From the NCBI GenBank assembly GCA_946610035.1, contig CAMOCC010000001.1, positions 35,948-99,947 of the forward strand: a DNA stretch of 64,000 bases. Reading direction: 5' to 3'. Shown in pieces: positions 151 to 39,490 of the stretch. Under the pieces are notes generated by a model that saw only the letters and a program-made list of their open reading frames with translations, did no database searches and had not been told where the DNA came from. Source of the stretch: an uncultured Verrucomicrobiota bacterium (GTDB lineage: Bacteria; Verrucomicrobiota; Kiritimatiellia; RFP12; UBA1067). Positions within the stretch are counted from its first letter, which is position 1. Every line of letters starts with the position of its first letter. Made by a program: the position numbers and the translations under genes.

Positions 151-439
151 ACAGGGGGTTGCGTCGCTCCGCGACGCAACAAATAAGTGCCTGAAGCAAT
201 CGACCCCCATCCACGTCCTTTCTTGTTCCGTCGCGGAGCGACGGAACCCCCTTGCAATAGCTGTCGTTTGCCCATATTTCAGCGCATACACATATATAAG
301 GTATTTTTCATGCTGCTATCGACTAACGACTGACAACTAGTGACTCATTTCATTTTACATTTCCCATCTTCAGGGTTTTTAGTGGTTGCGCGAGTGGGCG
401 AATGAATTGTGGTTGGGAAGTCGACGGTTGTGAAGTCTT

Positions 440-7138: not shown

Positions 7139-7204
7139 TGGCGTCCCGCGCCGTGCGGGTCTCTTTCCTTGGTTTGTTCAACTGAATCCACCGCTTTGCG
7201 ACGA

Positions 7205-7222
7205 TTTTTGATATAATATACA
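7205..7222 (+). promoter_or_regulatory. Extended -10 promoter TGATATAAT, 9 nt upstream of the argS ATG (leaderless-type)
   Basis: tttTGaTATAATatacagcctATG. AT-rich island in a GC-rich genome. Confidence 0.5.
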
Positions 7223-7226
7223 GCCT

Positions 7227-8960
7227 ATGACGCTCACAGACATTGTAAAATCGGCCTTTGAGAAGGCGTTCCCCGGGGAGGATCTCGGCGGCATCCGCGT
7301 GGTGCCCGCGACCGACCCCAAGTTCGGCGACTACCAGTGCAACGATGCCCTGAAGCTGGCCAAGAAGGTGGGCTTGAAGCCCCGCGACGCCGCACAGAGG
7401 GTTGCGGACTCGCTTGACCGCGCCTGCTTCGAGAAGGTTGAGGTCGCGGGGCCGGGCTTCCTCAACCTCACCGTTTCGCAGAGCTGGCTCAACTCCCGGC
7501 TTGCGGCGCTCGACGCGGCGCCCAATTGCGGCATCCCGCAGAACGGGAGGGGCAAGAAGATCGTGATCGACTACTCCTCCCCGAACGCCGCCAAGCAGAT
7601 GCACATCGGGCACATCCGCTCGACCGTGATCGGCAACGCCATCGACCGGATCTTCCGTTCGCTTGGATACGAGGTCGTCGCAGACAACCACCTCGGCGAC
7701 TGGGGTACGCAGTTCGGCATCCTCATCAAGGGCTACCGCGACCTCCTGACGGACGACGAGAGGGCGAACCTGACGGTCCCCGTCCTTGAGAAGTGCTATG
7801 TCCTCTCCGCGGCGAAGGCGAAGGAGGAGGACGGCGTGTGGCGCGAGGAGTGCAAGGCGGAGCTCGTGAAGCTGCAGCAGGGCGATGCGGAGAACCTTGC
7901 GCTCTGGAAGCGCTTCATCGACATCTCCATAGCCGAATTCAACCGCATGTACGCGAAGCTCGGCGTCAAGTTCGACACCTACCGCGGTGAATCGTACTAC
8001 AATCCGCTGATGCCCGGCGTCGTCGACCGGCTGCTGAAGGCGGGGCTCGCCGAGGAGTCGGAGGGTGCGCTCGTCGTCAAGCTCGAGAAGGAGAAGCTGG
8101 GAGTGGCGATCGTCAGGAAGTCCGACGGCGGCTACAACTACACGACGAGCGACCTTGCATGCGTCGAGAGCCGCGTGAAGGACTACGACCCCGAGCGCAT
8201 CATCTACGTGACCGACGACCGTCAGCAGCTCCACTTCAAGCAGTTCTTCTCCATCTGCGGCAAGCTCGGCTACACCGTGAAGCTCGTACACGTTCCGTTC
8301 GGGCTCATGAGCTACCAGGGCAAGGCCATATCGACGCGCGAAGGAAACCTCATCAAGCTCGACGACCTCCTCGCGGAGGCCGTGAGGCGCTCGAAGGCTA
8401 TCGTCGAGGCGAGGGCCGAAGGGGCCGCGGAGGGTCCGAAGGCCGCCGAGGGAGACGTCCTCAGGCTTGCCGAGCAGATCGGCTTCGGCGCGGTCAAGTA
8501 CGCCGACTTGAGCCACGACCCCGCGACGGCCATCGACTTCAACTGGGACAAGGCGCTCGCCCTTGAGGGCAACTCCGGCCCCTACCTCCAGTACGCCTAC
8601 GCGCGAGTCAAGTCGCTGCTGGCGAAGGCGGGGGGCGACGGGGCCTCTGGCGGAGTCGCACCCATGCCCAATGGCGTTGGAGGCTTTTTGGTTGCGGGGC
8701 CCGTAGAGAAGCGTCTCGCGTTGCAGCTCCTGGAGTTCCCGGGGGCCGTGGTGAGGGCGGCGGAGGCGTACAAGCCGAGCGTCCTCGCAGACTACCTCTT
8801 CCAGACGGCGCAGCTCTACTCGAGCTTCTACCAGAACTCGCCGATACTGAGGAGCGAGGAGCCTGTGAGGTCCGCAAGGCTCAGGCTTTGCGCGCTCTTC
8901 GGCGAAATCCTGAGGTCAGGACTCGGCCTTCTCGGCATCGAGACGCCCGAGCACATCTGA
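7227..8960 (+). CDS. argS: Arginyl-tRNA synthetase
   Basis: Class-I HIGH motif (QMHIGHIRSTVIGN), DNHLGDWGTQFG, 577 aa. Confidence 0.9.
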   Translation: MTLTDIVKSAFEKAFPGEDLGGIRVVPATDPKFGDYQCNDALKLAKKVGLKPRDAAQRVADSLDRACFEKVEVAGPGFLNLTVSQSWLNSRLAALDAAPNCGIPQNGRGKKIVIDYSSPNAAKQMHIGHIRSTVIGNAIDRIFRSLGYEVVADNHLGDWGTQFGILIKGYRDLLTDDERANLTVPVLEKCYVLSAAKAKEEDGVWREECKAELVKLQQGDAENLALWKRFIDISIAEFNRMYAKLGVKFDTYRGESYYNPLMPGVVDRLLKAGLAEESEGALVVKLEKEKLGVAIVRKSDGGYNYTTSDLACVESRVKDYDPERIIYVTDDRQQLHFKQFFSICGKLGYTVKLVHVPFGLMSYQGKAISTREGNLIKLDDLLAEAVRRSKAIVEARAEGAAEGPKAAEGDVLRLAEQIGFGAVKYADLSHDPATAIDFNWDKALALEGNSGPYLQYAYARVKSLLAKAGGDGASGGVAPMPNGVGGFLVAGPVEKRLALQLLEFPGAVVRAAEAYKPSVLADYLFQTAQLYSSFYQNSPILRSEEPVRSARLRLCALFGEILRSGLGLLGIETPEHI

Positions 8961-21367: not shown

Positions 21368-22740
21368 TGCACCTCGGCTGGTCGTCGCACATCTACCCGT
21401 TGGATGCCGCCGATCTGGCGGGCGTCCCGGACTACGACGGGCCGGACATCCCCGCATGCGACCTGCCGGGCGACGAGGTGGTGCTCCTGATCCGACGCGA
21501 AGCGCCCGACGCGCTGTTGCGCGGACGCGCCGCGATCGAAGCGGCCGGCGCCGGAACGGTGGACGTCCGCATAGTGTTCGTCCCGACCATCGCGAAGTGG
21601 AACCTCCCGTTCACCCTCATGCGCCTCCTGCGCAACAGGAGGCGGTTCAAGAGCTCGGGCGTGTACCATATTGCGACGGACTCCCTGCGCAGCCTCGGGC
21701 TCGAACGCGCCGTAAGGACGCTCGACCATCCGCAGCGCAGAGGCTCCTCGGACAGGATTGAAAGGATGCATCGCCTGGAGGAGAGCCTGCGGACGGAAGG
21801 CTACGACGACTCGAAGCCCGTTGTCGTCATGCTCTGCCGCACGCGCGGCGTCGAGGACTCCGTCCGCCAGGGGCACCACCGTATCAGCGTATGCCTGGAG
21901 GTCGGAATCCCCAAGGTGGCGCTTCGCTTCTCCGCTGCAGGGGCGCTGCCGCGCATCCTGGGAAGGGCCGTGGGGCGCCCGCCGATCAGGCTGGACGTGC
22001 TGAAACGCTCCATTGAAAGCGCATGCGGCAAGCCCGTGCGGCGGATCGTTCCGCTCGGGGACAGTCCCAATCCGGCGAAGGTCATCGTCGTCCCCGAGCC
22101 GGGCGGAAGGTTCGTCCTCGACCTCTCCCAGAGCCGCAGGCTTACAGTGGGGCTCGCCCCGGCGATACTCGTCCCGCTGCTCGTCGCAGGCGCGTTCGTA
22201 TTGGACGTCGCCGTCATGAAGACGGCGATGGGCGAACACTCCCTGGTGGCTTGGAGCCAGTTCGCGCTTTCGGGCGCGTCGTCAGTGCTTTTGTGGATCC
22301 TCGTCTTACGCGAGAGGCGCGCGAGGTGCGGATACGCGGCCCTTGCCTTCACCTTCGCCATGACTGCGGTGTACGAGCTTCTGAGGGACGTCCTCGACGT
22401 GGGCTCCAACGTTGTCGGACCGGCCGCCACGCTATCCGCCGTCTCCTTCGCCGTTCTCGTCGCGGTGTTTGCGAGGCGCTCCTTCGCCGTCGGCGTCCGC
22501 CGCATAGCCTCGTCTCGCGCCTTCCCCGCGCTCGTCTTCGGGGCTGTTCTCACGTGGATCGTCGCGAAGCTCGTCTCGAGCCGCGCGATTTGGGGCGCAC
22601 TCAAACTCACCGAGCACGACTTGAAGACGGTGAAGCACGTCATCGAGGAGGGGACGGAGTTCCTGGGCGACGCCATTGCGGCGTGCTGGGCGATCTCCTT
22701 CTTCCTCGAGCGCCTTGCGGATTGGAGGCACCGGAGATGA
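21367..22740 (+). CDS. Hypothetical protein with C-terminal multi-TM domain
   Basis: TGATG start overlap. At least four hydrophobic helices in the C-terminal third. Confidence 0.4.
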   Translation: MHLGWSSHIYPLDAADLAGVPDYDGPDIPACDLPGDEVVLLIRREAPDALLRGRAAIEAAGAGTVDVRIVFVPTIAKWNLPFTLMRLLRNRRRFKSSGVYHIATDSLRSLGLERAVRTLDHPQRRGSSDRIERMHRLEESLRTEGYDDSKPVVVMLCRTRGVEDSVRQGHHRISVCLEVGIPKVALRFSAAGALPRILGRAVGRPPIRLDVLKRSIESACGKPVRRIVPLGDSPNPAKVIVVPEPGGRFVLDLSQSRRLTVGLAPAILVPLLVAGAFVLDVAVMKTAMGEHSLVAWSQFALSGASSVLLWILVLRERRARCGYAALAFTFAMTAVYELLRDVLDVGSNVVGPAATLSAVSFAVLVAVFARRSFAVGVRRIASSRAFPALVFGAVLTWIVAKLVSSRAIWGALKLTEHDLKTVKHVIEEGTEFLGDAIAACWAISFFLERLADWRHRR

Positions 22741-24689
22741 AGGCCGATTTCGGGATAGGTGAATTGAAGTCCGCGCTGGAGTCCGGCTACGGCGTCGCGG
22801 TAGCCGCCCTTGAGCGGCTTCCCGGGCACGCCCATTCGATAAACTTCAAGGTCGCGACGGAAGACGGAGCGGCCTTCGCCGCGAAGTGCTTCCCCGCCGC
22901 CCACGTGTCGATGTTCGAGCGCCTTCTCGCGCACACCGCCCCTTCGGAGAATCCCCTCGCGGTGACGCGTCTCTTCGACGGGCGCATACTCGAGTTCGGA
23001 TCGTGGCGGATCGCGGCGCTCAAGTGGATCCCGGGCGGACGCAAATACCCGGATGAACTTACTGACGCGGAGGCGGATGAATTCCTCTCCGCATACGGCG
23101 CCTTCGCCGCCGGGTTGAAGGACGACGGATTCATAATGCCCGTCCGGGACGGCCTTGCGCTCAAGCGGAAGCTCATCGAGCGGCTGAAGGGCGGCAATGC
23201 GCCCGCGATCGTGCGTGAACTGAAGCTCATGCCGGACGACACGCTCTCGCTCGCACCGGAGGCGAGGCGGATCATCCACGGCGACCTCCACTGGGAGAAC
23301 TTCAGGTTCGAGGGCGGCAGGGTGAGCGGCTTCCTCGACTTGGAGGCGCTCAGGTTCGGGACGCCGGCGGAGGATTTTGTCCGCTACATAGTCTGCCGCG
23401 CCGAGCACCTCAGGTGGTACGATCTCGGTGGACGGCGCAGGCTGCTCGATGCGTTCCGCATGTTCCTCGCCCGGACGTCCCTTACGCGTGCGGAGTGGCT
23501 TTTCGCAATCGACGGCTACCTCCTCAGGAAGCTCGACAAGAAGATCAAGGCGAGGCGCGTCCCGCTGGCGACGAGGATAAACCTCGGGGCGCGATTCGGC
23601 TTCTACCGCGAACTGAGGGACGAGGTGTATCGCGCCATGCCGCACGTACGCACGGACGACCGGACTGTAGTCAAGATTCTTGGCGGGACGGTCAAGCGCT
23701 TCATGGGCGGACGCGTCTTCGACTGGGGCGGGAGGTTCCGCTTCGTCTGCGATCCCGCCTGCCGCGACTACGACTGGCTGTGCGTCTACGACGAGCTGCC
23801 GAACGCGTACCCGGGGGTGGTGCGCGGGAGGATGCGCGTGGAGTGTCCGAGGGGGCGGACGATCCTCGCCACGCAGGAGCCGGTGTCCGTCAAGTTCTAC
23901 AACAAGGCGTATACGCGCCAGTTCGGAGTCCTCCTCACGAACCGTCCGCCCGAGGCCGAGGGCCATCCCGGCTACGTGAAGGGCGAGGGGTACATGGTCT
24001 GGTACACCGGTCGCAGCTTCGCCGGGGAGCGCGCACACGAGGTCCCGGAGAAGACGAAGGTCCTCTCCGCCGTCTATTCGGCAAAGCGCATGGCGCATAC
24101 GCGCCATGCGGACCGCTACCGCTTCCTGGAGCTTCTCAGGCGCGAGGTGTCCGGCTTCGACTGGTTCGGGAAGGGCGTGAAGCCCATCGAGGAGAAGTCC
24201 GACGCCCTGGACGGCTACAAGTACACGATTGCCTTCGAGAACCACATCGGCGCGGGGCATTGGACGGAGAAGCTTTCTGACGCGCTGGTCGCGGGATGCC
24301 TTCCGTTCTACGCGGGCGATCCGGAGGTCGGGCGCATACTTCCGCCGGACTGCTTCATCCCGATTCCGGCGGACGACCCCGACGCGGCGCTTGCAATCGT
24401 GAAGAAGGCGATTGCCGAAGGCGAGTACGGGCGGCGGCGCGACGCGATAATGAAGGCGAGGGAGCTTCTGATGACGAAGTACAACCTCTTCGCCCAGATC
24501 GAGAAGGCATGCGAATGGAAAATGGAAAATGTAAAATGTAAAATGGAAAATGGGGAATGGGGAATGGACGAGCCTTCGTGCTGCATTTGCACGCGCAGGC
24601 ATACGAGGCTGTATCCGAGCGCGGCCGTTGCAGATTTGACGCATCACATCAAGAGATTGTTAAAGAGAAGTCCGGGAGGAACGCCATGA
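22738..24689 (+). CDS. Fusion protein: APH/choline-kinase-like phosphotransferase domain + GT10 (alpha-1,3-fucosyltransferase-type) domain. The 3' end contains a 7-nt repeat tract.
   Basis: IIHGDLHWENFRF (HGDLHxxN kinase motif). YKYTIAFENHIGAGHWTEKLSDALVAGCLPFYAGD matches the GT10 signature (Y-K-[FY]-x-[IL]-AFEN...TEK). ATGA overlap at both ends. Confidence 0.65.
24513..24568. repeat. Heptanucleotide tandem repeat (GAATGGA/AAATGGA/AAATGTA) x8 at the 3' end of the kinase-GT10 gene
   Basis: gaatgga aaatgga aaatgta aaatgta aaatgga aaatggg gaatggg gaatgga. AT-rich tract in a GC-rich gene. Unit length is not a multiple of 3. Confidence 0.85.
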
Positions 24690-25489
24690 CCGACGCCGAT
24701 CAGGGTAAAGTGAACGTTATCTGCCTCAAGTGGGGGACGGCATATCCGCCTTTCTACGTGAACAGGCTCTATGCGGGCGTCAGGCGCCACATGAAGCGTC
24801 CGTTCCGCTTCATCTGCTTCACCAACGAGCCGGAGGGACTCAATGCTGGGATCGACGTCCAGCCCATTCCGCCGCGCCCGGACGGGCTCGACCCGAAGCG
24901 CAGGTGGCCGACGGTGTACACGAAGCTCGCGCTGTTCAAGGATGGATGCGGCGGATTGAAGGGACCGACGCTCTTCCTCGACATCGACCAGATAATCGTC
25001 GGCGACATGGACCGCTTCTTCGACTACAAGCCGGGCGAGTTCTGCATCATCCACAACTGGATAGAGCGCAGGAAGCTCATCTTCAGGGGGCGTCCGAACA
25101 TCGGCAACTCCTCGTGCTTCCGCTTCGAGGCGGGCTCGATGAACAGGGTGTGGGAGGCGTTCGCGACAGACCTGCCCAATGCCTACGACAAGAAGAGGTT
25201 TGCGACGGAGCAGGCGTTCATGACCCACGCGGTCGGGCTCGGACAGAAGGTGAACTGGTGGCCGGAGGACTGGGTCGTCTCGTTCAAGCGCGTCTGCCAC
25301 AGGATATTCCCGATGAACCTGATGCTGCCGCCGAAGAGGCCGGCGGGCGCTTCGATCCTCTGCTTCCACGGCGATCCGAGTCCGCTGGAGGCGATAGACG
25401 GGTTCAGGTTCCACCACGGTGTGAAGGTGCCCATTCACCAGACTACGCTTCCGGCGCCGTGGGTCAAGGATCTGTGGGAGAACGGCTGA
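24686..25489 (+). CDS. Putative nucleotide-sugar glycosyltransferase (DXD-type)
   Basis: ICLKWGTAYPPFYVN...RFICFTNEPEG and LFLDIDQIIVGDMD (DxD). ATGA overlap. Confidence 0.35.
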   Translation: MTDADQGKVNVICLKWGTAYPPFYVNRLYAGVRRHMKRPFRFICFTNEPEGLNAGIDVQPIPPRPDGLDPKRRWPTVYTKLALFKDGCGGLKGPTLFLDIDQIIVGDMDRFFDYKPGEFCIIHNWIERRKLIFRGRPNIGNSSCFRFEAGSMNRVWEAFATDLPNAYDKKRFATEQAFMTHAVGLGQKVNWWPEDWVVSFKRVCHRIFPMNLMLPPKRPAGASILCFHGDPSPLEAIDGFRFHHGVKVPIHQTTLPAPWVKDLWENG

Positions 25490-26824: not shown

Positions 26825-28225
26825 TTGTCCGTGGCTACCAATTTCAAGACAAGGCTTATACGGCTTGCGACGGCGCTCATCCCTGCAAAGGGGGTGAGGA
26901 AGCGCATTCGCAGGCGGCTTCTGGACCGCGAGCGCGACGAAAGGGTTGCGCTGACTCTGCCGGGGGTCCGTGCCCGCTACGCCGCGCACGAGGCCGCGTG
27001 CCGTGCGAAGCTTGCGCGCGGCGAGCGGCTGTCAGTCGCCTTCCTCGTCTGCGACGCGTCCATGTTCTCGGGCGAGCCCGTCTTCCTGAAGATGCGCGAC
27101 GACGCGCGCTTCAGGCCGTTCATCGCCGTCGCCCCGCGCGTGACGAGGGGAGACGAATTCCTGCGCGAAACGCTCGACAAGACCGCGGGTGCGCTGGAAG
27201 GGCGCTATCCGGGGGCGGTGGTGCGGCTCTACGACCCCGCCACCGGGCGGAGGGAGCGCCTTGATGCGGACGTCGTTTTCTCCACCGTGCTCTACGAGGA
27301 CCAGACGTATCCCGACTGGACGACTGAGAGGCTTTCGGAACGCTCGCTTGTCGCGATACTCTACTACGGCTACGGCGGACTCTTCTTCACGAACGAGAGG
27401 AAGACGCCGTTCCTCCCGAACATCGTCCTCTCCTGGCGCTATTTCGTGTCCAACGAGGCGACCAGGGCGATGAGCGCCGCAAAGAACCCGCTCCTCTCGC
27501 ACAACACGTTCGCCGTAGGCTACTGCAAGATGGACAGGCTAGAAGAATGTAAAATGGAAAATGGAAAATGTAAAATGGGAAGAGGCGAATGCAGTGTAGG
27601 ACTTGCACCGGGGCCTGCGAGGAAGAAGGTGATGATATGTCCGCACCACTCCATAGACAGGGAGGCGGACGGCCTCGCGCTTTCGACGTTCCTCGAGCAT
27701 GCGGACCTCTTCAGGCGCCTTCCCGCGATGTTTCCGGATGTCGATTTCGTGTTCAGACCGCATCCGCTCCTCTTTCCGAGGCTCGCGACGGCGAAGTGGT
27801 GGGGGCCCGAGAGGACGGCCCGCTACGCGGCGGAGATGGAGGCGCATCCGAACGTGGAGTTCCAGAGGGGCGGCGACTACTTCGCGACGTTCGCCGGGTC
27901 GGACGCGCTCATCCACGACTGCGGGTCGTTCCTGGCGGAGTATTTCTACACGGGGAAGCCGCAGTGCTACATGCTGGCGGACGACGCCACGGTGGAGCGG
28001 CAGTTTCTGCCGTTCGCGAGGCGGCTTCTCGACCACGTGGAGCGCGCGTACACAGACGACGACATCGTCGCCTTCGTGCGACGGGTGGTCCTGGCGGGCG
28101 ACGATCCGCGCAAGGCGGGGAGGGAGGACTTCGCGGCGCGCGAGGTGTGCGTGAACCATCCGCATGCGGCGGCGGGCGTCGTCGATGCGGTTGTGAAGGG
28201 AATCAAACAAGAGGAGGTCAAATAA
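26825..28225 (+). CDS. TagF/TagB-like CDP-glycerol glycerophosphotransferase family protein (start TTG 26825 or GTG 26831). Internal 7-nt repeat tract.
   Basis: C-terminal half carries KKVMICPHHSID...FRPHPLLFPR motifs reminiscent of the Glyphos_transf domain. Low certainty on family. Confidence 0.4.
   Translation: MSVATNFKTRLIRLATALIPAKGVRKRIRRRLLDRERDERVALTLPGVRARYAAHEAACRAKLARGERLSVAFLVCDASMFSGEPVFLKMRDDARFRPFIAVAPRVTRGDEFLRETLDKTAGALEGRYPGAVVRLYDPATGRRERLDADVVFSTVLYEDQTYPDWTTERLSERSLVAILYYGYGGLFFTNERKTPFLPNIVLSWRYFVSNEATRAMSAAKNPLLSHNTFAVGYCKMDRLEECKMENGKCKMGRGECSVGLAPGPARKKVMICPHHSIDREADGLALSTFLEHADLFRRLPAMFPDVDFVFRPHPLLFPRLATAKWWGPERTARYAAEMEAHPNVEFQRGGDYFATFAGSDALIHDCGSFLAEYFYTGKPQCYMLADDATVERQFLPFARRLLDHVERAYTDDDIVAFVRRVVLAGDDPRKAGREDFAAREVCVNHPHAAAGVVDAVVKGIKQEEVK
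27545..27593. repeat. Heptanucleotide tandem repeat (GAATGTA/AAATGGA) x5-7 inside the TagF-like CDS, between its N- and C-terminal domains
   Basis: gaatgta aaatgga aaatgga aaatgta aaatggg (aagaggc gaatgca). Same repeat family as 24513-24568. Confidence 0.85.
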
Positions 28226-28227
28226 AG

Positions 28228-28668
28228 ATGAGCAAGACGATTATAGGCTATACGAGCGGGGTCTACGACCTCTTCCACATAGGGCATCTCAACCTTCTGA
28301 AGAACGCGCACGGGCTCTGCGACAAGCTGATCGTGGGCGTTTCTGTGGACGAGCTCGTGGCGTACAAGCACAAGAGGGCTGTTATCCCGTTTGCGGAGCG
28401 GCTGGAGATCGTCCGTTCGATCAAGTACGTGGACGCGGCGATTCCGCAGGACGACCTGGACAAGTACAAGATGTGGGAGAAGCTCCACTTCGACGTCCTC
28501 TTCGTCGGCGACGACTGGTTCAACACGCCGAGCTGGAAGGAGATGGAGGCCAAGTTCTCGAAGGTGGGCGTCAGGGTCGTCTACTTCCCGCGCACCAAGG
28601 GGACGAGCTCGACGATCCTCTCCGCTACGCTCAAGAAGCTGCGCGAGGGAGAGGGAGGGGCGGCATGA
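28228..28668 (+). CDS. HxGH-family cytidylyltransferase (glycerol-3-phosphate cytidylyltransferase TagD / CCT-ECT type)
   Basis: GYTSGVYDLFHIGHLNLLK (HxGH). RTKGTSST near the C-terminus. GAGGAGG SD. Confidence 0.8.
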   Translation: MSKTIIGYTSGVYDLFHIGHLNLLKNAHGLCDKLIVGVSVDELVAYKHKRAVIPFAERLEIVRSIKYVDAAIPQDDLDKYKMWEKLHFDVLFVGDDWFNTPSWKEMEAKFSKVGVRVVYFPRTKGTSSTILSATLKKLREGEGGAA

Positions 28669-30173: not shown

Positions 30174-30226
30174 ATGTCGTCGATCAAAAACCCGTAGCCG
30201 CCGGCGGAAAAGCCGGGGCCTGGCGC

Positions 30227-31033
30227 TTATCGCGCGTTATCCTCGTCGTCGTCGGGTTCCGGCGGCGTATAGTTTTCATCGAGCCACCTGTTCGCGGCGT
30301 CGATGTCGGTCCACTCTTCGCCCGTCAACTGTTCATATTCCTCCCGGGCGACACGAGCGCCGGCCTCGTTGCCGCTTTCAATGATTGAGACAAGGGACTC
30401 GAGTATCTCAAGGTCGTCGTCGCGGGATGTGATCTCGCTTACGATGCTGGTCAGCGCTTCGACGCTGTCGAGCGTCTTCATCGTCGCCTCGGCGATTGAC
30501 AATCGCAGGTCGTTGTCCTCGATGTCGCTCATTGCCAGCTCCCACTGGGATATAGCCGTGTTGGCCACATCGTCATCGGGGTCCGCCATCAACGGAGTCA
30601 GATCGGGAAGCGCCTGCGGACCGAACCACCCCAATGCCTCGATTGCCGCCTCACGAACGGCGGGGTTTGTCGACTTAAGCGCATGTTGAGCCGCGCTTGC
30701 AACAGCGGAGAAGTTGTCCTCGTCCAATGCGTCCTGGACTGACAGCACGATCTTGCGGTCGTCGGCGGAAAGTTCATCAAGAAACGCTTCAAAGCCTGGT
30801 TTTTCGCCCAACCGTGACTGTGGAATCCGCCGTTTGGAAACCACATCCTGCACTGCAGCTTTCGGGTCCTGCCGTCCCGGTTTCGGCTTGGACCGGATGA
30901 CTCGTCTGCCTGGATCGGGTTTAACCCGGCCGCTCTCGTCACCCGTCCCACGCTCCGTTTGATATAGGCATATAAGCCCTGCGGCGACGGTCGCCACCGC
31001 CAGGGCTGCCCAACTAACAGTCTTACGATTCAT
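30227..31033 (-). CDS. N-terminally membrane-anchored HEAT/ARM-like repeat protein with acidic C-terminus (paralog of 49133-50083)
   Basis: One TM helix, then repeated A.EALGW.G helical repeats and a DDDEDNAR tail. Confidence 0.5.
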   Translation of the reverse strand: MNRKTVSWAALAVATVAAGLICLYQTERGTGDESGRVKPDPGRRVIRSKPKPGRQDPKAAVQDVVSKRRIPQSRLGEKPGFEAFLDELSADDRKIVLSVQDALDEDNFSAVASAAQHALKSTNPAVREAAIEALGWFGPQALPDLTPLMADPDDDVANTAISQWELAMSDIEDNDLRLSIAEATMKTLDSVEALTSIVSEITSRDDDLEILESLVSIIESGNEAGARVAREEYEQLTGEEWTDIDAANRWLDENYTPPEPDDDEDNAR

Positions 31034-31043
31034 GTCCAGTATA

Positions 31044-32042
31044 TCAGTCGATGACGACCGGCCAGCTGGCCTTCAGTTTCTTGCAGGTTGCGATGCCTGT
31101 CGCCGTTTCGCCGTTGATGCGTCCGCTGACGTTGAACGAATACTTCTTGAGCTTTGGCTTGCCTTTCTCGATATTCGCCTCGTTGGTTGCATAGACCTTG
31201 AACGAACCGGTGAAAGTCGCCTTCTTGGAGTTGTACTTGAGTTTGAGACCGGATATGTTGGTCTTGTTCTCGTCGTCGAGGCCGATGAGTTCATACCACG
31301 TTTCGCCGTCTTCCTTGAATTTCTTGTACTTGATGCTCGGCGCCTTGCCGCAGTTCCAGCTCTTGGCGTTCGAGGTCACAATCTCGAGATCCGGAATCGT
31401 CTCGAAAATCAGGTCGTAGTCGTCGCTTGGCATCTCGTAGTCATCCGCTTCGACGGAGAAGGTATGCTGCCCGTGCACAAACGTCCCGTCGTCGTCATCG
31501 TCATCCGTCTCGTATTCGTCGGCGAATTCGTAGGCTCCCGCCTTGCCGCCGACCTCGCCGTCTGACGTAATTACCACCTCGACAGCTCCGAGGTTCTTGA
31601 CACTCGACCATGTAGCCGTGATTGTGCCGCCTTCATCGGGCGCGAATGCGGTTTTGGACGCCGTTGCGCTCTTGCCCGACGCCAGCTTGAAGGCGATCTT
31701 GACCGAAACCTTTCCCTTCTTCGACTTTTTGCTAGTCGTGATGGTTGCGAGACCTGCATAGGTGCCGTCTTCGTTCACGATGTAGGCCTGTTTCGTCATG
31801 GCCTTCGACCAGTCCGTCGTGCTCCAGCTGCCGCCCGACGACGAGCCTCCGCCCGACGACGAGCTCTCGTCTCCGCAGAACACGCAACCCGAGGAGGGCT
31901 TCGATGGTATGATGACAGGATCGTCGTCTATGACGATTTCGCCGCCGTTGCAGAACGCGCAGCCGTCGTAGACGGTCGTTTTCTTGGCCTGCGCCGCAAT
32001 CGCGACGGCGCCGAGCAGGGAGAGAAGAATCGCTTTTTTCAT
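31044..32042 (-). CDS. Secreted protein with two CxxC pairs and the shared Lys-rich C-terminal module
   Basis: Signal peptide MKKAILLSLLGAVAIAAQA. CAFC and CVFC. C-terminal LKLKYNSKKATFTGSFKVY...KKLKKYSF...GIATCKKLKASWPV. Confidence 0.6.
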   Translation of the reverse strand: MKKAILLSLLGAVAIAAQAKKTTVYDGCAFCNGGEIVIDDDPVIIPSKPSSGCVFCGDESSSSGGGSSSGGSWSTTDWSKAMTKQAYIVNEDGTYAGLATITTSKKSKKGKVSVKIAFKLASGKSATASKTAFAPDEGGTITATWSSVKNLGAVEVVITSDGEVGGKAGAYEFADEYETDDDDDDGTFVHGQHTFSVEADDYEMPSDDYDLIFETIPDLEIVTSNAKSWNCGKAPSIKYKKFKEDGETWYELIGLDDENKTNISGLKLKYNSKKATFTGSFKVYATNEANIEKGKPKLKKYSFNVSGRINGETATGIATCKKLKASWPVVID

Positions 32043-32084
32043 AGCCTTGTCCTTTCTTGTAGATGGGTTTTGGTGGGCGTTCGG

Positions 32085-32963
32085 TTATTCGCCGAGAGTC
32101 TCGGCAATTTTTGCGGCAACCGCAGCTTTGACCGTTGCGGGGAATTTCTTGTAGACGTCGAGAATGGAGGTTGAGTTGCGGAGCTTCTTCGACAGCTGGG
32201 AGTTGTATTTGATCGACCACGTGCCGGACACCGCCGTGAAGTCGACGTCGCCGAATTCTGCGCAGTCGCAGAAGTTCCAGGCCGTGGCATAGTCAACTTC
32301 GTCTTCCTCGTCCTCCTCGGCGTTGCAGAACGTGCAGACGCCTTTCTTGCCGGGCGTCGTGACGGAGGGAGCCGGCATCCATCCGGCGACATTGCCCGAG
32401 ATTGTCTTGACGTAGCTCATGCAGTCGGCAAGCACAAGGTTCCCGTCCGCCTTCTCCGTGCTCAGGACAAGGGAGCCGAACCCGGCGAAGGAAAGGAATG
32501 CGTTGGAGCTGTCGCTTGAGTCTCCGATCGTCCAGGCCCCCTCGCACTTCGTCCCGTTCTGGTCGATGGCGTTGAGCAGCCGCCAGTGTATGTCCTCGTC
32601 GAAGACGATCGTGTTGGGGCTTTTCTTGTCCCAGATGACGCATCCCGCGACGATTCCCATGCTCTGGTTTATGACCGTCCAGTTGCCGAGGATGGCGTCG
32701 CAGCTGCATCCCCAGATGACGCCGTTCCAGGTCTGCGACCCCTGCGTGCGGTAGACGATCGTGCCGGTTTCGTCGACGAATGCGTTCTTGCCGGCCGAGA
32801 TGGACGACTTCTTGGCCGAAGTGGTCTTGATCGTGATCTTGACGTCGTAGACCTGTGCGGCCTTGTCGTCTTCGGCATTGCCGAACGCGGCGGGAGTCGA
32901 GCAGCAGACGCCGGCGGCGAGTGCGATTAGCATGGTGGTGTGTTTCATGGTATGTTCCTTCAT
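32085..32963 (-). CDS. Secreted Cys-rich 'IWGCDCE' family protein (paralog 1)
   Basis: Signal peptide. AQVYDVKITIKTT, VIWGCSCDAILG, SGNVAGW, CTFCNAEEDEED, SGTWSIKYNSQLSKK. Confidence 0.6.
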   Translation of the reverse strand: MKEHTMKHTTMLIALAAGVCCSTPAAFGNAEDDKAAQVYDVKITIKTTSAKKSSISAGKNAFVDETGTIVYRTQGSQTWNGVIWGCSCDAILGNWTVINQSMGIVAGCVIWDKKSPNTIVFDEDIHWRLLNAIDQNGTKCEGAWTIGDSSDSSNAFLSFAGFGSLVLSTEKADGNLVLADCMSYVKTISGNVAGWMPAPSVTTPGKKGVCTFCNAEEDEEDEVDYATAWNFCDCAEFGDVDFTAVSGTWSIKYNSQLSKKLRNSTSILDVYKKFPATVKAAVAAKIAETLGE

Positions 32964-34564
32964 TTGTTGTGTTTGGGTTTTGTCCTTGAAGCTCTGCGCC
33001 TGGACGCGGGTGGCTTTGCCGGACGGTAGACCGCGCCGTCCGTGTCCGTAATCACCGCCCCCGCGCTGCCTGCACCCGGACGGCTCAGGCGCTTGCCGTC
33101 CTCGAAGACGAAGACGGGCCCGCCATCGTTGGCAGCCTCTTCCCGGAGGAATCCGTCTTGCGTATTTTTCTCGCTCCGGAACGCCTTGCGGCGGACGAGA
33201 CGGATGTTACCATGGCTTGAAATGGTAATCTCGGAATTGCCGTCTTCCGCAACGAATTTTCCTGTGGCCCATTCGGGAAGCGGCTCGACGCGAAACAGCA
33301 CCCGCCGCGGTACGCGCAGCCCGCCGGTTCGCTGCGTGAATGTGAATGTCGCGGTATAGGACCCCGGTTTGGTCGCGCACCCGGAAAGGACGCGGCCCTC
33401 GGCGTCGCAGGAGAATCCCGGCGGGATGCGCGCAGCTTGCAGGCGCACGTCGTTCGAAACGCCTCCAAGCGCGAATGTGCGCCGCACGCCGCATCGCAGG
33501 GCGATCGCCCCGTCCCGCATTCTCGGAACGTTCCCGTCTTCCAGCAACGCGAAGGCAAGCTCGCTCGCGAACCTTGCATCGGTTTGCGTCGGCTTTGCCG
33601 CGCGGTACTGCGCGATAATAGGACAGGTCGCGATCAGCGTCCGTGTGTTGTCGTTTGTCGGCGTACCCACGGGAATGTCGCGTACGACTGTGCCGTTGTC
33701 GGCCGTGAACGTCAGCGCATAGTCCGGCGAGGAGAAGAACGGCAGTATGACGCCGTCCTTCTCCTCGGGGTACCCTGTTACCGTCGTGAGCGGCGTGTCG
33801 CCGGCGCGGAAACGGTAGGCGGATGACCACGGGTGAAGCTGCGGCCCGGGCGTTTTGTGCTGCGTATCGCTGTGGCCTGCGCCGAAAAGGTGCCCGATTT
33901 CGTGCATCAGTGTGTGGCGTTGTTCGATTGCATCGATCCGACAGGCGCAATAGGCCCTCTCGGAGAGCGCGTCCAGATCGCCGGCGGCCAGCTGGTCGTG
34001 GTAGATGGAAGTGGCGTAGCCGTAGATGTTGGGTGTTTTGCTGGTCGTGAGGATGGCGACGATATCGGCATGGCTGGCATCGCGCGCCGCCCGGATGTGT
34101 TCGGCCGTCTGCGCATCGAGAGCTGGCGTCGCACCCAGTGTAGGGGCAAAAGCCGCGACGATTTCCGTTAGCTCATGCGCGCCGAAATCCAGCGGCGAGA
34201 CGTCCATCACGTCCGCCAGGCGGAACGTGAAGCGCCGGTCGATGCCCGTGTACGCCAGCGATGCGTTCAGATCGTCCACACACGCCTTGGCGTAGCCTTC
34301 CGTGGCGTGTCCGGCGGCTGCGAGATGATTCTGTGCGGACGCATCGAACACGAGTAGAACGTCGACCACATTGGTCTCCGTATCCCCGCCGTACCAGTTC
34401 GGCGCGAGAGGCAATGCCGCCGCCTGCGAACCGTCAGATTCCGGACGTCGGGCCAGCGTCCAGTTCTCCGCCGCGCACAGACCGCCTGCCAGCAAGACTG
34501 TGGTTAGAAGCGCGCCTTTCACGGCACCTCCTTTCTGGCGGGTTCTAGCACCTTGGAAATCCAT
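32960..34564 (-). CDS. Secreted metzincin-type zinc metalloprotease (possible GTG start at 34522)
   Basis: HTLMHEIGHLFGAGHSD (HExxHxxGxxH). Confidence 0.65.
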   Translation of the reverse strand: MDFQGARTRQKGGAVKGALLTTVLLAGGLCAAENWTLARRPESDGSQAAALPLAPNWYGGDTETNVVDVLLVFDASAQNHLAAAGHATEGYAKACVDDLNASLAYTGIDRRFTFRLADVMDVSPLDFGAHELTEIVAAFAPTLGATPALDAQTAEHIRAARDASHADIVAILTTSKTPNIYGYATSIYHDQLAAGDLDALSERAYCACRIDAIEQRHTLMHEIGHLFGAGHSDTQHKTPGPQLHPWSSAYRFRAGDTPLTTVTGYPEEKDGVILPFFSSPDYALTFTADNGTVVRDIPVGTPTNDNTRTLIATCPIIAQYRAAKPTQTDARFASELAFALLEDGNVPRMRDGAIALRCGVRRTFALGGVSNDVRLQAARIPPGFSCDAEGRVLSGCATKPGSYTATFTFTQRTGGLRVPRRVLFRVEPLPEWATGKFVAEDGNSEITISSHGNIRLVRRKAFRSEKNTQDGFLREEAANDGGPVFVFEDGKRLSRPGAGSAGAVITDTDGAVYRPAKPPASRRRASRTKPKHNK

Positions 34565-36378
34565 CCGGGAATGTAGAGTTCCGCGCCGGGAACGATATCG
34601 ACCCAGGTCCTTTCGCGCCCATACTGCGTATCGAACTGCGCGGCGAACTCGCCAATCGCAAGCCGGACTTCCGAGCCGGACGACAGGGTGTACGGAACGG
34701 CATCAGGCGCAAACGGCGGCGAGAGAAAGATCGTCCGCCGCGCATGGCAGTAGGCTCCATCGCCCAGATGTTTCGCACGGTGCTTGAGATAGCGCGCCGC
34801 GCCCCTACCGGCAGCCACAAGGCGATCGACGGCATTGGGGAGTTCGTCCGGATTGTTGACGACGAGCACGGAACCAGCATCCGGCGTCGCATGGATTCCA
34901 TCGCGCAGCTCATGCCCGAAGCTGCCGATGGCGTCGCCTGCTAATACTGCGTCGTCACGAATGATGGCCGTATGCACGTCACCACGACCGATGCGAACCG
35001 TGCCGCCATCACACGCAACGGGAATCTCGCGGGCGTCCGCCTGACGGCGACCAATGGCTTCGAGTGCCAGAACCGTGAGGCACCCCAAAACGACCGCGAT
35101 GGCGAAAAGGAGGGCGAGACGCCGACGGGTCGCGCCGCTGCCGCCCTGTGCCAGCTCTTTGCCGACGACGACAAGCACCGCTCCGCCGCAGAGCGCCGGG
35201 AGAATCCACAACGTCGGGAAGATGCCGACGGTGCTGAACCAGAGCGAAACGGCAAACGCACTCCAGACGGCCAGCGCAACCTGGACTGTTTTGCGTCGTG
35301 CAAAGGCGAAAAGGAGCATGAACAGCATCAGCCAGGCCGACACATAGGCGCAGCGGAAGACGCGTCCGTACTGCACCATCCAAGTGAGATGGCTGTTCAC
35401 GAGATAGTAGAGACGGTGATTGTCGGAAGGGGCCTGGAACCAGTCGCAGTATGCGCGGCCGGGTTCATCGCCCCAGCCTTCGGGCGCAACCGCCATCATC
35501 TCGGGTGCTGCGGCCCAGCATCTGAGCCGTTGCACGTTGCCTTCATCCACGGAAAGCAGGTTCGCGCCAAAACGTCCGTCCGTCATCTTCCCGACGGCAA
35601 AAAGGGCGACACCTCCCAGAAGAACGGTAAGCATGGTGCCCAGCAGGACCCTTTTCCCCCCAAGACGCGGAACGAAGTGCACAAGCGCCGTGATGGCGAT
35701 GCCGAGGATAGACGCGATAAACGATCCGCGCGAGCCGGTTAGAATCAAGGCGACGAGCGCGGCTGCCGAGGCTCCCAGACACGCTAGGCGTACACCGCAC
35801 CGCCGCCAAACGAGGGCGAATGCGGCAAACAGCGCCGCAATCTCCGCAAAGAGCGTGCCGGCGGCATTGGGGTTGAAGTATCCGAGTCTGAGACGCGCGC
35901 CGTCACGCCACCAACTGGCTTTTTCCGCCTTGTCCCGTTCGGCCGAACGCGGACGCCAGAGCTGCTGAAGAGTCGGCGGCCTCTTGGGATGGGCGGAAAG
36001 GAAGGCGAGATCCTTCGCCTTCCGGTTTTCATCGCCTTCACGCCGGAAACTTCTGAGTCGGCCTTGCGTGAAGACAAGCGTCGCCGCCCCGGCATCAAGA
36101 AAATTGCGATGATGAACGTCGATGCGACCATCCGATTCCTCCATTGCCGTGGCTTCGTGCGACTGCCATGTGCGTTTGCGCGCGCCGGGGCGCGCGTCGA
36201 AGGACATGACGGGGATCGACGCATACTTGAGGACAAGTCGGTCCTTCCCGCCCGGCGCCAGATAGAAATCCGACACGCCTGCCGCGGTCCCTTCGCCCAC
36301 CGGGATATCGTATCCGAAGGCGGGAAGCGCGGCAAGCGCAAGGCAACTCAGGATCTTTCTGGCGCAAGAACCAATCAT
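34519..36378 (-). CDS. Wzy_C-domain (O-antigen-ligase / PglL-like) polytopic membrane protein
   Basis: Many TM helices. LILTGSRGSFIASILG resembles the Wzy_C TxSRG motif. C-terminal VPGAELYIPGW is shared with the paralog at 46911-48680. Confidence 0.55.
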   Translation of the reverse strand: MIGSCARKILSCLALAALPAFGYDIPVGEGTAAGVSDFYLAPGGKDRLVLKYASIPVMSFDARPGARKRTWQSHEATAMEESDGRIDVHHRNFLDAGAATLVFTQGRLRSFRREGDENRKAKDLAFLSAHPKRPPTLQQLWRPRSAERDKAEKASWWRDGARLRLGYFNPNAAGTLFAEIAALFAAFALVWRRCGVRLACLGASAAALVALILTGSRGSFIASILGIAITALVHFVPRLGGKRVLLGTMLTVLLGGVALFAVGKMTDGRFGANLLSVDEGNVQRLRCWAAAPEMMAVAPEGWGDEPGRAYCDWFQAPSDNHRLYYLVNSHLTWMVQYGRVFRCAYVSAWLMLFMLLFAFARRKTVQVALAVWSAFAVSLWFSTVGIFPTLWILPALCGGAVLVVVGKELAQGGSGATRRRLALLFAIAVVLGCLTVLALEAIGRRQADAREIPVACDGGTVRIGRGDVHTAIIRDDAVLAGDAIGSFGHELRDGIHATPDAGSVLVVNNPDELPNAVDRLVAAGRGAARYLKHRAKHLGDGAYCHARRTIFLSPPFAPDAVPYTLSSGSEVRLAIGEFAAQFDTQYGRERTWVDIVPGAELYIPGWISKVLEPARKEVP

Positions 36379-36390
36379 CTACCGAATGTC

Positions 36391-39300
36391 CTATTTGATT
36401 TCGACCGGGAAGCTTCGCTTCGCGGTCTTTCCTCCAAGGCGATCCGAGAAAAGGCAATGGCCGAGGCCGAACGCCACATTCTCCATTTCAATCAGCTCGT
36501 CGTTGTCCTCGCCGCAGTCGCAGTCGCTGAACCAGCCGCGTGTGAGTACGCCCGTGAACTTCGCCGATACCCGGGCCTTGCCTTCGAACGAGAGTGTCGA
36601 TTTCCCGGTGAAGACGCCCGTTGAACGGTTCAACTTGAACGAGAACCCTGTCGCCTTCGTTGCGGTGGCGCTGGAATCCGTGATGGTCACAACCGCGCCC
36701 TCGCCGGCCACATGCATGAGCTCTCCCCAGGCCGGACTCGGCGCGACGGACTCCGTCACGGGCGCAAACTGCAACGCCAGCGTTTCGTCGTCGATGCCGA
36801 CAAGCAGCGAATCGTTCTTGTCATACCAGCTCCCGCGTACGGCAAAGGTGCGCGTAAACGATCTTCCCTTGGTTTTATTCGTCCAGACGGCCTCGGTGCC
36901 GTCCTGCGCGATGACGGCGCGGGTCGACGGGGCGTCCCCGGCGTTGCGCCGTACCTTCAGCACAGCCGCGAACGTTTCGACGCCGACCGTGCGCAACACG
37001 GGCACAATGCCGAAGTTGGCGTCCACCCACGTTACGCTGGACGACCCCGTCAGCGTCTTGCCGTCGGGAAGGTGGATCGTGTATTTAAACTGTCCTTTCT
37101 TTTTCGCCGTCGTCGTCGCGGCCATCTTCAGTGTCATGACGGCATCTCCTGCCGGTTCTGTCGTCGACGCGTTGTCGACAGACGGAAACGCCACGGTGTA
37201 TACGCCGGAAAATGCGCCATAGCTCTCGGCGAGGCCGCATTCACCCGAAGCAAGTGTGCTTGTGCCGTCGTCGACTTCAGCGGCCACAACGCCGTCTGCT
37301 CCCATGACCAGCGAAAGGGTGAAGTTCTTCTTGGTCAAAAGGGCGGTCGCGGTGCCGTCGGCGGCTATGTCGTCGTCCCACTTGCCCGTGAACAGGGCAA
37401 GACTGCCTCCGCCCGCCGAATACTTGGCAGAGATCCTTCCGTTCTTTTTCAGCGACAACGCAAGGAGCCCTTTGAGCGTCGTGCCGTCGGACGCATAGAG
37501 CGGCAACGTCGTCGTCAGGGCCTTGGATGTCCAGTCGTTTGTGAACGGATTGTCTATGGCTTTGCGCGAACCAGCCAGCGTGTAGGCCGTGACGGTGCTC
37601 GCGGCGGACGCGTCGGCCGCAAGCGTCCCCGAACCTTCGCCCACGACCGAAACGTAATAGTTGCCTCCCGTGGATGATATGACGCCCGTCGCGCTCACGC
37701 CGTCTGAAAGGCGTCCCGTGGCAGTCGCCACCGTGCGCGCCGTACCGCCGACGACTTCTATGATGCTGACGGTCGCCGTTGTGTTGGCGTCGCTGCCGCT
37801 GACGGTGATTGTCTGCGAAGCCGCCGCTGCGGAAGTCGCGGCAAGGCGGTATGTGTCGGCGAGGTCGAGCGCTGAAAGCGTCGCGGTCGTTGCGGTGTCG
37901 CCCGTGAACGAATCATTCGTCGTCTGCCAGGAACGGTTGTCCAGATCTCCGTCGCCGTTTGCGCCCATCTCCACCAGCTCCGTGAAACGCTGGAGGTATG
38001 CCGCATTGAACTCGGAAGGACCAATCGCGTCGAACGTCTCGAACGTCCCCGCGAGTTTGCCGTCGCGCGTCAGCGCGAAGAAGTTCGGGATGCCCGTGCG
38101 GTTCTGGTTGGCGCGGTTCGGGTCGTTCCAGCCCCCGTTCAGCGTGTTCTGGCCGACAAGCGACCGGTTGCGGTTCAGTGTCGCTTGCGCGGCGGCATCC
38201 GAGACCATGTGGCGCGAAAGGTAGCCGGCGCCGCTCTGGTAGCGTTCGAGCTCGTTTGTCGCCAGCGTGCCGCGGCCCGAGATGTAGCCGTCGCTAGTGC
38301 GGCCGACGACGCGCGTCAGCAGGCAGGCGGAATTCGTCGTATTCGGGAAGTTGGGCACGTCGATGTCGACGAGAATAACCTTGTTGTCAACGGCCCATTC
38401 CTTGAAAGCCGTGGTTTCCAGTACATGTTCGTCGGTCATCACGCAGTCGGGGCACCAGAGTGAACCACTGGCCACGGCCATCAGGCGCGAATCGGGTTCG
38501 TTGCGGTATTTTTCCATCGCCACGTCCAGGTCCATCGTCCATTCGCCGTAATCAAGCGTCGCGGCGGTGCGCTCGCCGATGAAGAAGGGGTTCTTCGTCG
38601 AGTTCTCCCGTTCGCCCACGAGGAAGATGCGGACGCGTCCGCGCGCGTTCCCGGTTTCGTCCAGGAGCGCGAGGGCGATCGCGCCGCCGGCTTTCGCCGA
38701 TTCCGGCACGGCGACGCGCACGGTCCGCGCGGTTTGATTCTTCTGCCAGGCGACCGTCGCGCGCTGTATTTCCTGGCCGCCATAGGTGGCCGTTAACGTG
38801 TTCGTGGCCGCAAAAGCAGCCGCCGCAGCGTCACGCACGAGCGGAACATCGACGTATTTCGTGAAACCGACCTCGGCCTCCAGTCGCGCGTGTTCATATT
38901 CGGACGTAAACAACAGATCGCCGCCGAGATAATCGGGAATTGGCGCGTACCCGGCGAAGAAGGACTCGGCGCGGCTCTTGAGCGTCGCGGCGCTGTCGGT
39001 GGTAAAGCTTGTCGCCGCCACGCCGCTGGCCTTGGGCCAGTAGAGGCAGAGGTACGGATATCTCGATGGCGTCTTTGTCGCGGTGCCGGCCGCTTTCCCG
39101 GCGAAATTCTTGACGACGGACGTGCCGTCCGGATCCTTGCCGTTTTTCCCGAGAACGAAACAGAACAGATAGCCGGACGCGTCCATCCACTGCGTAAACG
39201 ACGACGATTGCACGTCCGCTTCCAGCGCCGCGCAGTGGCTGCAGCCGGTGTTCGCCCAGAAGACCACGAGCGGACGATGCGCCGTGACGGCGGCGTTCGT

Positions 39301-39417: not shown

Positions 39418-39490
39418 TGGATTATTCCTTTCATGTTAACTTGTTGTTATTGTTGTTTGTGTTTTGCATTCACCCCTCTATACAAAAATC

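Follow-up and report, generated by a model that had tools for sequence, protein, structure and literature searches.

Two tracts of imperfect heptanucleotide repeats of the AAAATGK family (K being G or T at the seventh position) lie inside two glycan-biosynthesis genes of an uncultured gut bacterium of the Verrucomicrobiota (Kiritimatiellae), in a stretch of 64,000 nucleotides (nt) of contig CAMOCC010000001.1 that is referred to as the window throughout. Tract 1 occupies the 3' part of gene A, which encodes a fusion of a kinase and a GT10 (fucosyltransferase-like) domain, and tract 2 lies in the middle of gene D, which encodes a TagF-like protein. An initial annotation, made from the sequence alone, had proposed both as candidate sites of slipped-strand phase variation. 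The data presented here lead us to consider that the tracts are probably tolerated simple-sequence repeats in linker-coding DNA, which evolve under selection to keep the reading frame and do not act as an on/off switch. Heptanucleotide simple-sequence repeats are of a kind already known, and here they are translated as a variable linker. A repeat with units not divisible by three in a surface-glycan gene is usually read as phase variation; the present case indicates that this inference can fail, which bears on the automated prediction of contingency loci in metagenome-assembled genomes (MAGs). The alleles present in the population point to selection that keeps the frame of a translated 7-nt repeat.

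Anatomy and translation of the heptanucleotide tracts

Tandem Repeats Finder and a reading of the individual units both place the two tracts where the initial annotation had put them, inside coding sequence (Table 1). A period-7 array extends over 24514-24568 (7.9 copies, 89% matches, score 68) and a second one over 27546-27578 (4.7 copies, 88% matches), the latter continuing to 27591 as a 21-nt period. Both had been described as (AAAATGG)n; the tandem array is real and the uniform unit is not. Indeed, the units read in order GAATGGA AAATGGA AAATGTA AAATGTA AAATGGA AAATGGG GAATGGG GAATGGA in tract 1 and GAATGTA AAATGGA AAATGGA AAATGTA AAATGGG, followed by two decayed units, in tract 2. Identical units never occur more than twice in succession in either tract, so that both arrays are imperfect. 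The tracts are AT-rich, as had been noted, with a GC content of 34-35% against 64% in the local surroundings, and the value of about 68% given earlier for the host DNA has to be lowered to 62.2% for the window.

Using a two-unit probe (AAAATGGAAAATG, at most 2 mismatches), 13 matches were obtained in the window against 0.46 expected from shuffled sequence, and no short period other than 7 gives rise to arrays of this sort there. This excess of tandem 7-nt units over chance identifies the tracts as heptanucleotide simple-sequence repeats. Units of the AAAATGK family are found at three sites of the window, the third being a short intergenic copy (tract 3) which adjoins a tract built from a different heptamer (Table 1).

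Table 1. Positions of the repeat tracts, of the genes that carry them and of related insertions (window coordinates unless a locus is named)
Feature	Position	Strand	Remarks
Gene A, 650 amino acids, APH-type kinase domain joined to a GT10 (fucosyltransferase-like) domain	22737..24689	+	assigned by Pfam; hosts tract 1
Tract 1, about 8 imperfect 7-nt units (AAAATGG, AAAATGT and GGGAATG types)	24513..24568	+	inside gene A
C-terminal tail of gene A, conserved (DEPSCCICTRRHTRLYPSAAVADLTHHIKRLLKRSPGGTP) and in the frame of the gene body	24569..24689	+	ends in a predicted amphipathic basic helix
Gene B, 267 amino acids, no family match	24686..25489	+	ATG overlaps the gene A stop codon (ATGA), behind a GGGAGG ribosome-binding site
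Gene D, TagF-like (CDP-glycerol glycerophosphotransferase), 464-466 amino acids	26825..28225	+	weak Pfam match; tract 2 lies between its halves
Tract 2, about 5 good and 2 degenerate 7-nt units of the AAAATGK family	27545..27593	+	inside gene D
Tract 3, short degenerate AAAATGK-family copy, GAAGATG GGAAATG TAAAATG AAATG	346..371	-	intergenic, 3' of the minus-strand gene 440-1267
Different 7-nt periodic tract, ATCGACT AACGACT GACAACT AGTGACT	318..345	unassigned	abuts tract 3, giving a composite heptamer array
In-frame KMENGKW-type insertions	L006 (~4100-4131), L082, L119, L050, L052, L098, L070		in unrelated bacteria

The gene assignments made earlier agree with Pfam, the TagF-like one on a weak match. 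The gene A product matches PF01636 at 1.2e-15 and PF00852 at 1.4e-6, the latter with 28.5 bits against a cut-off of 23.9 and over part of the profile (positions 2-109 of 182), and an identical protein is present in public assemblies. Gene D matches PF04464 (Glyphos_transf) at 0.0022, which is below the curated cut-off. Both tracts are translated in the frame of their genes: tract 1 as residues 593-611 (EWKMENVKCKMENGEWGM), 91% of the way through the coding sequence of gene A, and tract 2 as residues ~241-257 of gene D (ECKMENGKCKMGRGEC).

In the homologs of gene A, the segment that connects the GT10-like body, which ends in YNLFAQI..A, to the C-terminal tail varies in length and sequence from lineage to lineage. 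The ~39 residues past tract 1 (DEPSCCICTRRHTRLYPSAAVADLTHHIKRLLKR...) are kept in frame in homologs down to ~43-50% identity, with R620, R624 and D633 invariant. Tract 1 is, from the homologs compared, specific to this species at site 1, since the KMEN tract is missing from all gene A homologs at 68% identity or less. For gene D, 277 homologs were retrieved, mostly metagenome sequences of Kiritimatiellae, a group that also supplies the named homologs of both genes, all from metagenome assemblies. In an alignment of 40 sequences, tract 2 lies in the sole region of hypervariable length, which falls between GYCKMDRL and RKKVIxCPHH, and the homologs can be aligned on either side of the tract.

The AlphaFold models of gene A and gene D products have a mean predicted local distance difference test score (pLDDT) of 90.7 and 90.2, respectively, and both show a helix that extends into the 5'-encoded half of the tract. 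In gene A, helix 584-604 enters tract 1 and residues 606-611 are the sole internal stretch with a pLDDT below 50. The tail beyond it is modelled as a strand (616-618) and a helix (627-642) at pLDDT 76-85, and the hydrophobic moment of this helix, 0.62-0.65, exceeds the protein's 95th percentile of 0.49. In gene D, helix 234-252 ends within tract 2 and is followed by a disordered segment (254-263), again the sole internal one of low confidence (pLDDT below 50).

Other heptamers occupy the same linker in TagF-like relatives of gene D. L124 carries there a perfect (TCTCAAC)x4.9 (2623-2656), read as STLNSQLSTLN, L125 and L173 carry decayed tracts of GAATGNA type, and L174 is devoid of a tract. The L124 contig also contains a block of other short repeats at 7094-7215, (CACCCAAA), (CCCCCCA) and (ACTCAAAC)x4.4, inside a called gene of the major facilitator superfamily/acyltransferase type at 5825-7888.

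Tract alleles among conspecific strains

Clustering of proteins at 90% identity gave 14 distinct sequences for gene A and 19 for gene D from ENA, Logan, NCBI and JGI assemblies. The strains treated as conspecific share at least 90% protein identity, and the window and the 62-kb strain contig L002 are 97.9% identical in DNA over 13 kb. Approximately 30 allele copies, from assemblies independent of one another, could be compared, comprising 13 full-length sequences, the window and L175 at site 1, and 14 full-length sequences and the window at site 2. None of these copies, all taken from consensus assemblies, is out of frame.

The instability of the tracts that had been anticipated is apparent on the timescale of strain divergence, with five alleles at each site, length variants included. 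As for the lengths themselves, they do vary among strains, and no out-of-frame length is among them: the differences amount to 24 nt at site 1 and to 21 + 12 nt at site 2, which are multiples of 3 and not of 7. At site 1, four alleles are equal in length and the fifth (L003) is 24 nt shorter, so that 12 of the 13 full-length proteins have 650 residues and one has 642. The alleles of equal length differ within the tract by W/C, V/G, E/G, N/H and M/T changes; L002, for instance, departs by four changes from the eight units of the window, all of which it retains. Site 2 presents a short form, EECKMEN(G/V)KCSAGPA, in 10 sequences, and a long form, with an extra 21 nt (three units) and 12 nt, in four sequences and in the window. 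Each of the two occurs with G or with V, which points to recurrent unit-type switching or recombination. The fifth allele is a longer form with at least one extra heptad, cut off by the end of a contig that starts inside tract 2.

Comparison of the window with L002 over gene A gave mismatches at 4 of the 56 tract positions and at 40 of the 1897 positions elsewhere (Fisher p=0.035), and all four tract substitutions are nonsynonymous. Substitutions are thus enriched in the tract, all of them change the peptide and none of the alleles is out of frame, which argues that the tract is unstable and its sequence unconstrained while its frame is kept. Invariant tract length, or a tract peptide conserved under purifying selection, had been named beforehand as evidence that would speak against switching. 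The length turns out to vary and the peptide to change by the four nonsynonymous substitutions; what is preserved is the frame. A scan of JGI metagenomes at site 1, anchored on the flanks and blind to frame, retrieved one further locus, whose allele is in frame and of the same length as in the window.

Two candidates for out-of-frame alleles were discarded in the course of this survey. P0162 (197 amino acids) looked like the downstream half of a frameshifted gene, and its contig starts inside the tract. P0173 (237 amino acids), taken as a possible out-of-frame allele, is a contig-end fragment with an intact tract. The idea that the tract encodes a conserved motif of cysteine or zinc-binding type was also rejected, on the ground that the W/C positions vary among strains.

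Sites 1 and 2 share identical stretches of 26-37 nt in some strains. Copying between them is plausible because site 1 of L002 matches site 2 of the window over 37 nt, and no mechanism for it is evident. The suggestion that the two tracts could serve as substrates for mutual recombination therefore holds as regards the shared stretches, the exchange itself being only conceivable.

Predicted consequences of slippage

Slips were simulated at both sites. At site 1, loss of one unit had been expected to fuse gene A to the downstream open reading frame (ORF). The sign of this prediction is wrong: -7 nt always truncates the protein, to 591-631 amino acids, and slips in the 5' half end at a TAA that arises from ATGTAAA units. 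Only +7 nt in the 3' half (919 amino acids) or -14 nt gives a fusion with gene B, of 912-919 amino acids, and such a fusion would swap the conserved tail for out-of-frame sequence. Otherwise, a slip at this site removes only the last ~40-60 residues. Neither a protein of 912-919 amino acids nor any truncated or fused form is present among the 28 database relatives of gene A. Long relatives (941-987 amino acids) were considered as possible fusions of genes A and B and rejected, their extensions being other than gene B.

The ORF 24557-25489 of the six-frame translation, on which the fusion had been based, corresponds to gene B with an upstream read-on. Gene B matches nothing in Pfam or NCBIfam, and its earlier label of glycosyltransferase is not confirmed. 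It is called identically in the strain loci, all of which have the same gene order, and the ATGA overlap couples its translation to that of gene A.

For site 2 the prediction had been truncation ahead of the putative catalytic half, and the simulation agrees as to truncation, since +7 or -7 nt ends the protein at residue 244-262 of 466, with loss of the C-terminal half. Every out-of-frame slip simulated, at either site, either shortens the product or puts other residues in the place of conserved ones.

At the 3' end of tract 2, +7 or -14 nt would give a read-through product of 609-616 residues. A frame of 359 codons is open there (27589-28668), from just 3' of the tract into the cytidylyltransferase gene (28228-28668), and is probably an ordinary long alternative-frame ORF of GC-rich DNA.

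AAAATGK arrays in other genomes

A 27-nt pattern of four units (AAAATGK x3 + AAAATG) was searched for in contigs of one genome per species. Among the matches listed, more than 120 loci of many phyla (L004-L123) were found, against a chance expectation of at most 0.11 for the whole collection. The hosts among them include Acidobacteriota (many Pyrinomonadaceae), Bacteroidota, Ignavibacteria, Planctomycetota and Phycisphaerales, as well as Lentisphaerae/Lentisphaerota, Victivallis, Cloacimonadota, the candidate phyla radiation, cultured isolates and one Methanosarcinaceae bin. The pattern is also present in 47 viral contigs (L126-L172), giant-virus bins included. Several genomes have 2-7 array loci each, the seven being in the Phycisphaerales MAG CSMAG_1437, and the arrays are 27-419 nt long, with contigs often ending inside them, all among the matches listed. 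Tandem arrays of period 7 greatly outnumber those of any other period in the loci retrieved (208 arrays, ~78 of which have other unit sequences), and composite arrays of differing heptamers occur as in the window.

By crude gene calls, 69 of 109 arrays are outside ORFs. The copies located inside genes of recognised proteins fall in loops or linkers and are always read as a KMENGKW-type peptide (Table 1). They are found in frame in ThyA, TopA, ProRS, Sua5/TsaC, WecB (UDP-GlcNAc 2-epimerase), an RmlA-like transferase and an ABC transporter, the ProRS with the insertion belonging to a 'Lentisphaerae' MAG of 63% GC. Among credible genes, the antisense reading FSIFHFP is met in membrane-like contexts only. 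An on/off switch is implausible for the arrays in thyA, topA, proS and sua5 because these are essential single-copy genes; the mere presence of a 7-nt tract in a coding sequence therefore does not speak for phase variation.

AAAATGK arrays are strong compositional outliers in genomes of 62-65% GC, among them GC-rich members of the PVC (Planctomycetes-Verrucomicrobia-Chlamydiae) group and Planctomycetota. An independent origin of three AT-rich heptamer copies within 64 kb of a 62% GC genome is unlikely, and the same applies to the outliers of other GC-rich genomes. The recurrence of AAAATGK across phyla and in GC-rich genomes, within topA, proS and thyA, raises the question of how such arrays arise and spread. 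An association with transposases or a mobile-element footprint was rejected, as the ORFs that flank the arrays belong, across 120 loci, to housekeeping genes with no relation to one another, and a neighbour shared by these loci was not found. No description of the AAAATGK unit, its DNA array, its presence in GC-rich genomes of the PVC group or the peptides KMENGKW and FSIFHFP was found in the searchable literature.

In L019, L078 and L112 (Planctomycetota/Acidobacteriota, 64-65% GC), an inverted copy of the array lies ~60-100 nt past it. The pair, translated as KMENGKW...FPFSIFHF, would form a long hairpin, which suggests, at the level of sequence, a palindromic element built from heptamer arrays.

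Discussion

The reading that we favour, that of a tolerated repeat held in frame, would account for these observations as follows. The tracts of the AAAATGK family lie where two glycan-biosynthesis enzymes have poorly ordered linkers that tolerate differences in length. Such a tract could persist within a protein because three 7-nt units make 21 nt, i.e. seven codons, because the sense strand is stop-free in the register used and because the resulting peptide, K-M-E-N-G/V-K-W/C, is hydrophilic. Turnover would be rapid, by indels and by swaps between units with G and units with T in seventh place, with slippage or conversion as the presumed source of the variation. Slips that break the frame would be purged, presumably by purifying selection on the frame, because they would deprive gene A of its tail, or gene D of its C-terminal half, and thereby remove conserved downstream parts. 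The net effect would be a linker whose length and sequence vary from strain to strain with no switching on and off. The rarity of the tract codons within the cluster also speaks for a foreign or DNA-driven character of the sequence.

Several points weigh against this reading. It assumes that the peptide encoded by the tract is nearly neutral, while both tracts extend a predicted helix and both lie in one glycan cluster, which could reflect a function. The alleles come from consensus assemblies, which would conceal any out-of-frame variant carried by a minority of a population, and the allele listing covers 15 of the 19 proteins clustered with gene D. The excess of substitutions in tract 1 is weakly significant. 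The indels of 24 nt and 21 + 12 nt are not clean multiples of 21, so that simple slippage by three units is not a full explanation. Finally, slippage explains how the heptamer turns over and not how it came to be present three times in a genome of 62% GC.

Among long prokaryotic simple-sequence repeats with units of 5-11 nt, heptanucleotides form the largest class, and units divisible by three are the usual case where such repeats fall within coding regions (PMC4679880, which summarises Mrazek et al. 2007). The tracts described here resemble these repeats in having tandem 7-nt units beyond chance, a scattered phylogeny and a dominant period of 7, and depart from them in that the 7-nt unit is translated, with an effective period of 21 nt or 7 residues. 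A close parallel is offered by the TAACTGA heptamer repeats of Beggiatoaceae, Cyanobacteria and Bacteroidetes, which are mostly intergenic and often near start codons, their rare copies within ORFs being at protein peripheries and in a stop-free orientation (MacGregor 2015, PMC4679880). In both cases one heptamer is repeated in tandem at many loci of unrelated phyla, mostly in intergenic DNA and often near start codons, the occasional copies within ORFs are at protein ends or outside defined domains and in the stop-free orientation, heptamer arrays may be composite and assemblies break at arrays. The differences reside in the sequence of the unit, in the location of two of the three window copies inside coding sequences, in linkers, and in the hosts of AAAATGK, which include genomes of 62-65% GC where the array is a strong compositional outlier. 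The heptamers of the short tandemly repeated repetitive (STRR) sequences of cyanobacteria are comparable dispersed heptamer repeats. A likeness also exists with Borg elements, in whose ORFs young and fast-evolving tandem repeats are reported to add disordered hydrophilic segments (PMC9879509); units, hosts and scale are different.

Adaptive tuning of linker length is an unlikely alternative, according to which gain or loss of units in frame would set the distance between the GT10 domain and the C-terminal helix, and the spacing of the TagF-like halves, in the manner of an 'enzymatic ruler'. Acceptor choice or polymer length would be altered in this way, and the repeat would be kept as a quick generator of variants. 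The comparison that comes to mind is with the GT10 fucosyltransferases of Helicobacter pylori, in which 2-10 seven-residue repeats join the catalytic domain to two C-terminal amphipathic helices (PMC4202792), and where variation in the number of heptads of futA/futB is tied to variation in activity (Nilsson 2006, as cited in PMC2806470). Gene A has the same order of parts as FutA/FutB, a GT10 domain, a 7-residue-periodic segment and a predicted amphipathic C-terminal helix, together with in-frame length variation among strains; in-frame length alleles at both sites and the varied linker length of the homologs also suit this explanation. However, the H. pylori enzymes are built on a 21-nt DNA unit that encodes a DDLRV/INY heptad, and their on/off switching depends on separate poly-C tracts, whereas gene A has a 7-nt unit, an unrelated peptide devoid of DDLRV/INY-type tandem repeats and of a leucine-zipper-like pattern, and only ~2.7 heptads. 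Furthermore, almost all full-length site 1 alleles are equal in length, and the variants differ by 8 and 11 residues, which are not multiples of 7. The modelled strand and helix at the C terminus of gene A may also pack on the body of the protein and not reach for the membrane. Should linker length prove functional, gene A would be a second, independently evolved ruler-type GT10 enzyme. It is likewise doubtful that (AAAATGK)n, in place of a common microsatellite of local birth, is a self-propagating or horizontally spread array which, across bacterial phyla and large viruses, settles in frame in the linkers of proteins, essential enzymes among them, and, by its instability in 21-nt steps, retunes the GT10 and TagF-like linkers as such a ruler.

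Contingency loci such as the lic and lipooligosaccharide genes of Haemophilus, the fut genes of Helicobacter and, in H. influenzae, the 7-bp repeats in the promoters of the hmw genes are the models for slipped-strand phase variation. In these switches the tracts are perfect and usually near the 5' end, and strains with both in-frame and out-of-frame lengths exist. The same process at sites 1 and 2, with slips of a single unit that silence the enzymes or join genes A and B and that are too rare to appear in consensus assemblies, is improbable in our view. It is true that the unit length is not divisible by 3, that surface-glycan genes are the classic setting of contingency loci, that tract length is polymorphic among strains and that the fusion with gene B would follow from +7 nt in the 3' half of this tract in gene A; the perfect (TCTCAAC)x4.9 at the same linker in L124 also speaks for it. 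One assembly breaks inside tract 2, which the stretches of 26-37 nt common to sites 1 and 2 explain equally well. The switching proposed in the initial annotation, whether on/off or by fusion, nevertheless lacks support on several counts. None of the ~30 consensus alleles is out of frame, and the 28 database relatives of gene A offer no truncated or fused form. The arrays, with at most two identical units in a row, are poor substrates in comparison with known contingency tracts, and they are located mid-gene or at the 3' end. At the position of tract 1, an off state would cost only the tail, which is conserved in frame, and the heptamer is carried in frame by essential genes elsewhere.

It is highly improbable that the tracts act as regulatory elements at the DNA level, i.e. 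as internal promoters or as sites for nucleoid or regulatory proteins in a GC-rich operon, the number of units setting the spacing of hexamers or the occupancy. Sigma-70-like matches at 9 of 12 positions are present in tract 1 (TGGAAA-17-TAAAAT, plus strand) and tract 2 (TTTACA-17-TACATT, minus strand), with a 17-nt spacer that follows automatically from the 7-nt period, and many arrays in other genomes lie directly upstream of genes. These matches are weak, and the one in tract 2 is antisense. A systematic count in the 120 loci does not favour a promoter role, the orientation of the array relative to the downstream gene being without preference (21 versus 15, p=0.41), and the predicted translational coupling of gene B to gene A also argues against it. 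As for RNA, no Rfam match was found anywhere in the window, and the folding z-scores of the two tract regions (0.07 and 1.09) do not indicate a structured RNA.

A translational pause, by which a cluster of rare codons at a domain boundary would slow the ribosome so that the upstream domain folds first, is barely credible: both tracts do lie at domain boundaries and their codons are rare in the cluster (AAA 7% of Lys, GTA 5% of Val, AAT 12% of Asn, TGT 12% of Cys and GAA 15% of Glu), but the closest gene A homologs (68% identity or less) have no tract, one strain allele loses half of it, and the effect would be a by-product of AT richness.

Other features of the window

The other genes of the glycan cluster are assigned by Pfam to a kinase-like protein (gene C), a cytidylyltransferase and LicD. 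A segment of ~13 kb of the window (30188-43162) is missing from L002, which joins 30188 directly to 43162 and is otherwise 96-98% identical to the window, apart from a small inverted piece near 41665-41989. This segment is a strain-variable island inside or adjoining the glycan cluster.

A second kind of short repeat has been expanded in frame in a core enzyme gene of the same genome. A 48-nt unit is repeated five times in tandem at 1383-1620 (Tandem Repeats Finder score 364), within a minus-strand gene (1179-2462) that resembles Complex1_49kDa and the large subunit of NiFe-hydrogenases, and is read in frame as five 16-residue repeats (GDAASCRVTAITAPHT...). Every unit holds a perfect hairpin, GACGCGGC-n5-GCCGCGTC, of which three further copies are located at 15-117, giving a total of 8 against 0.01 expected.

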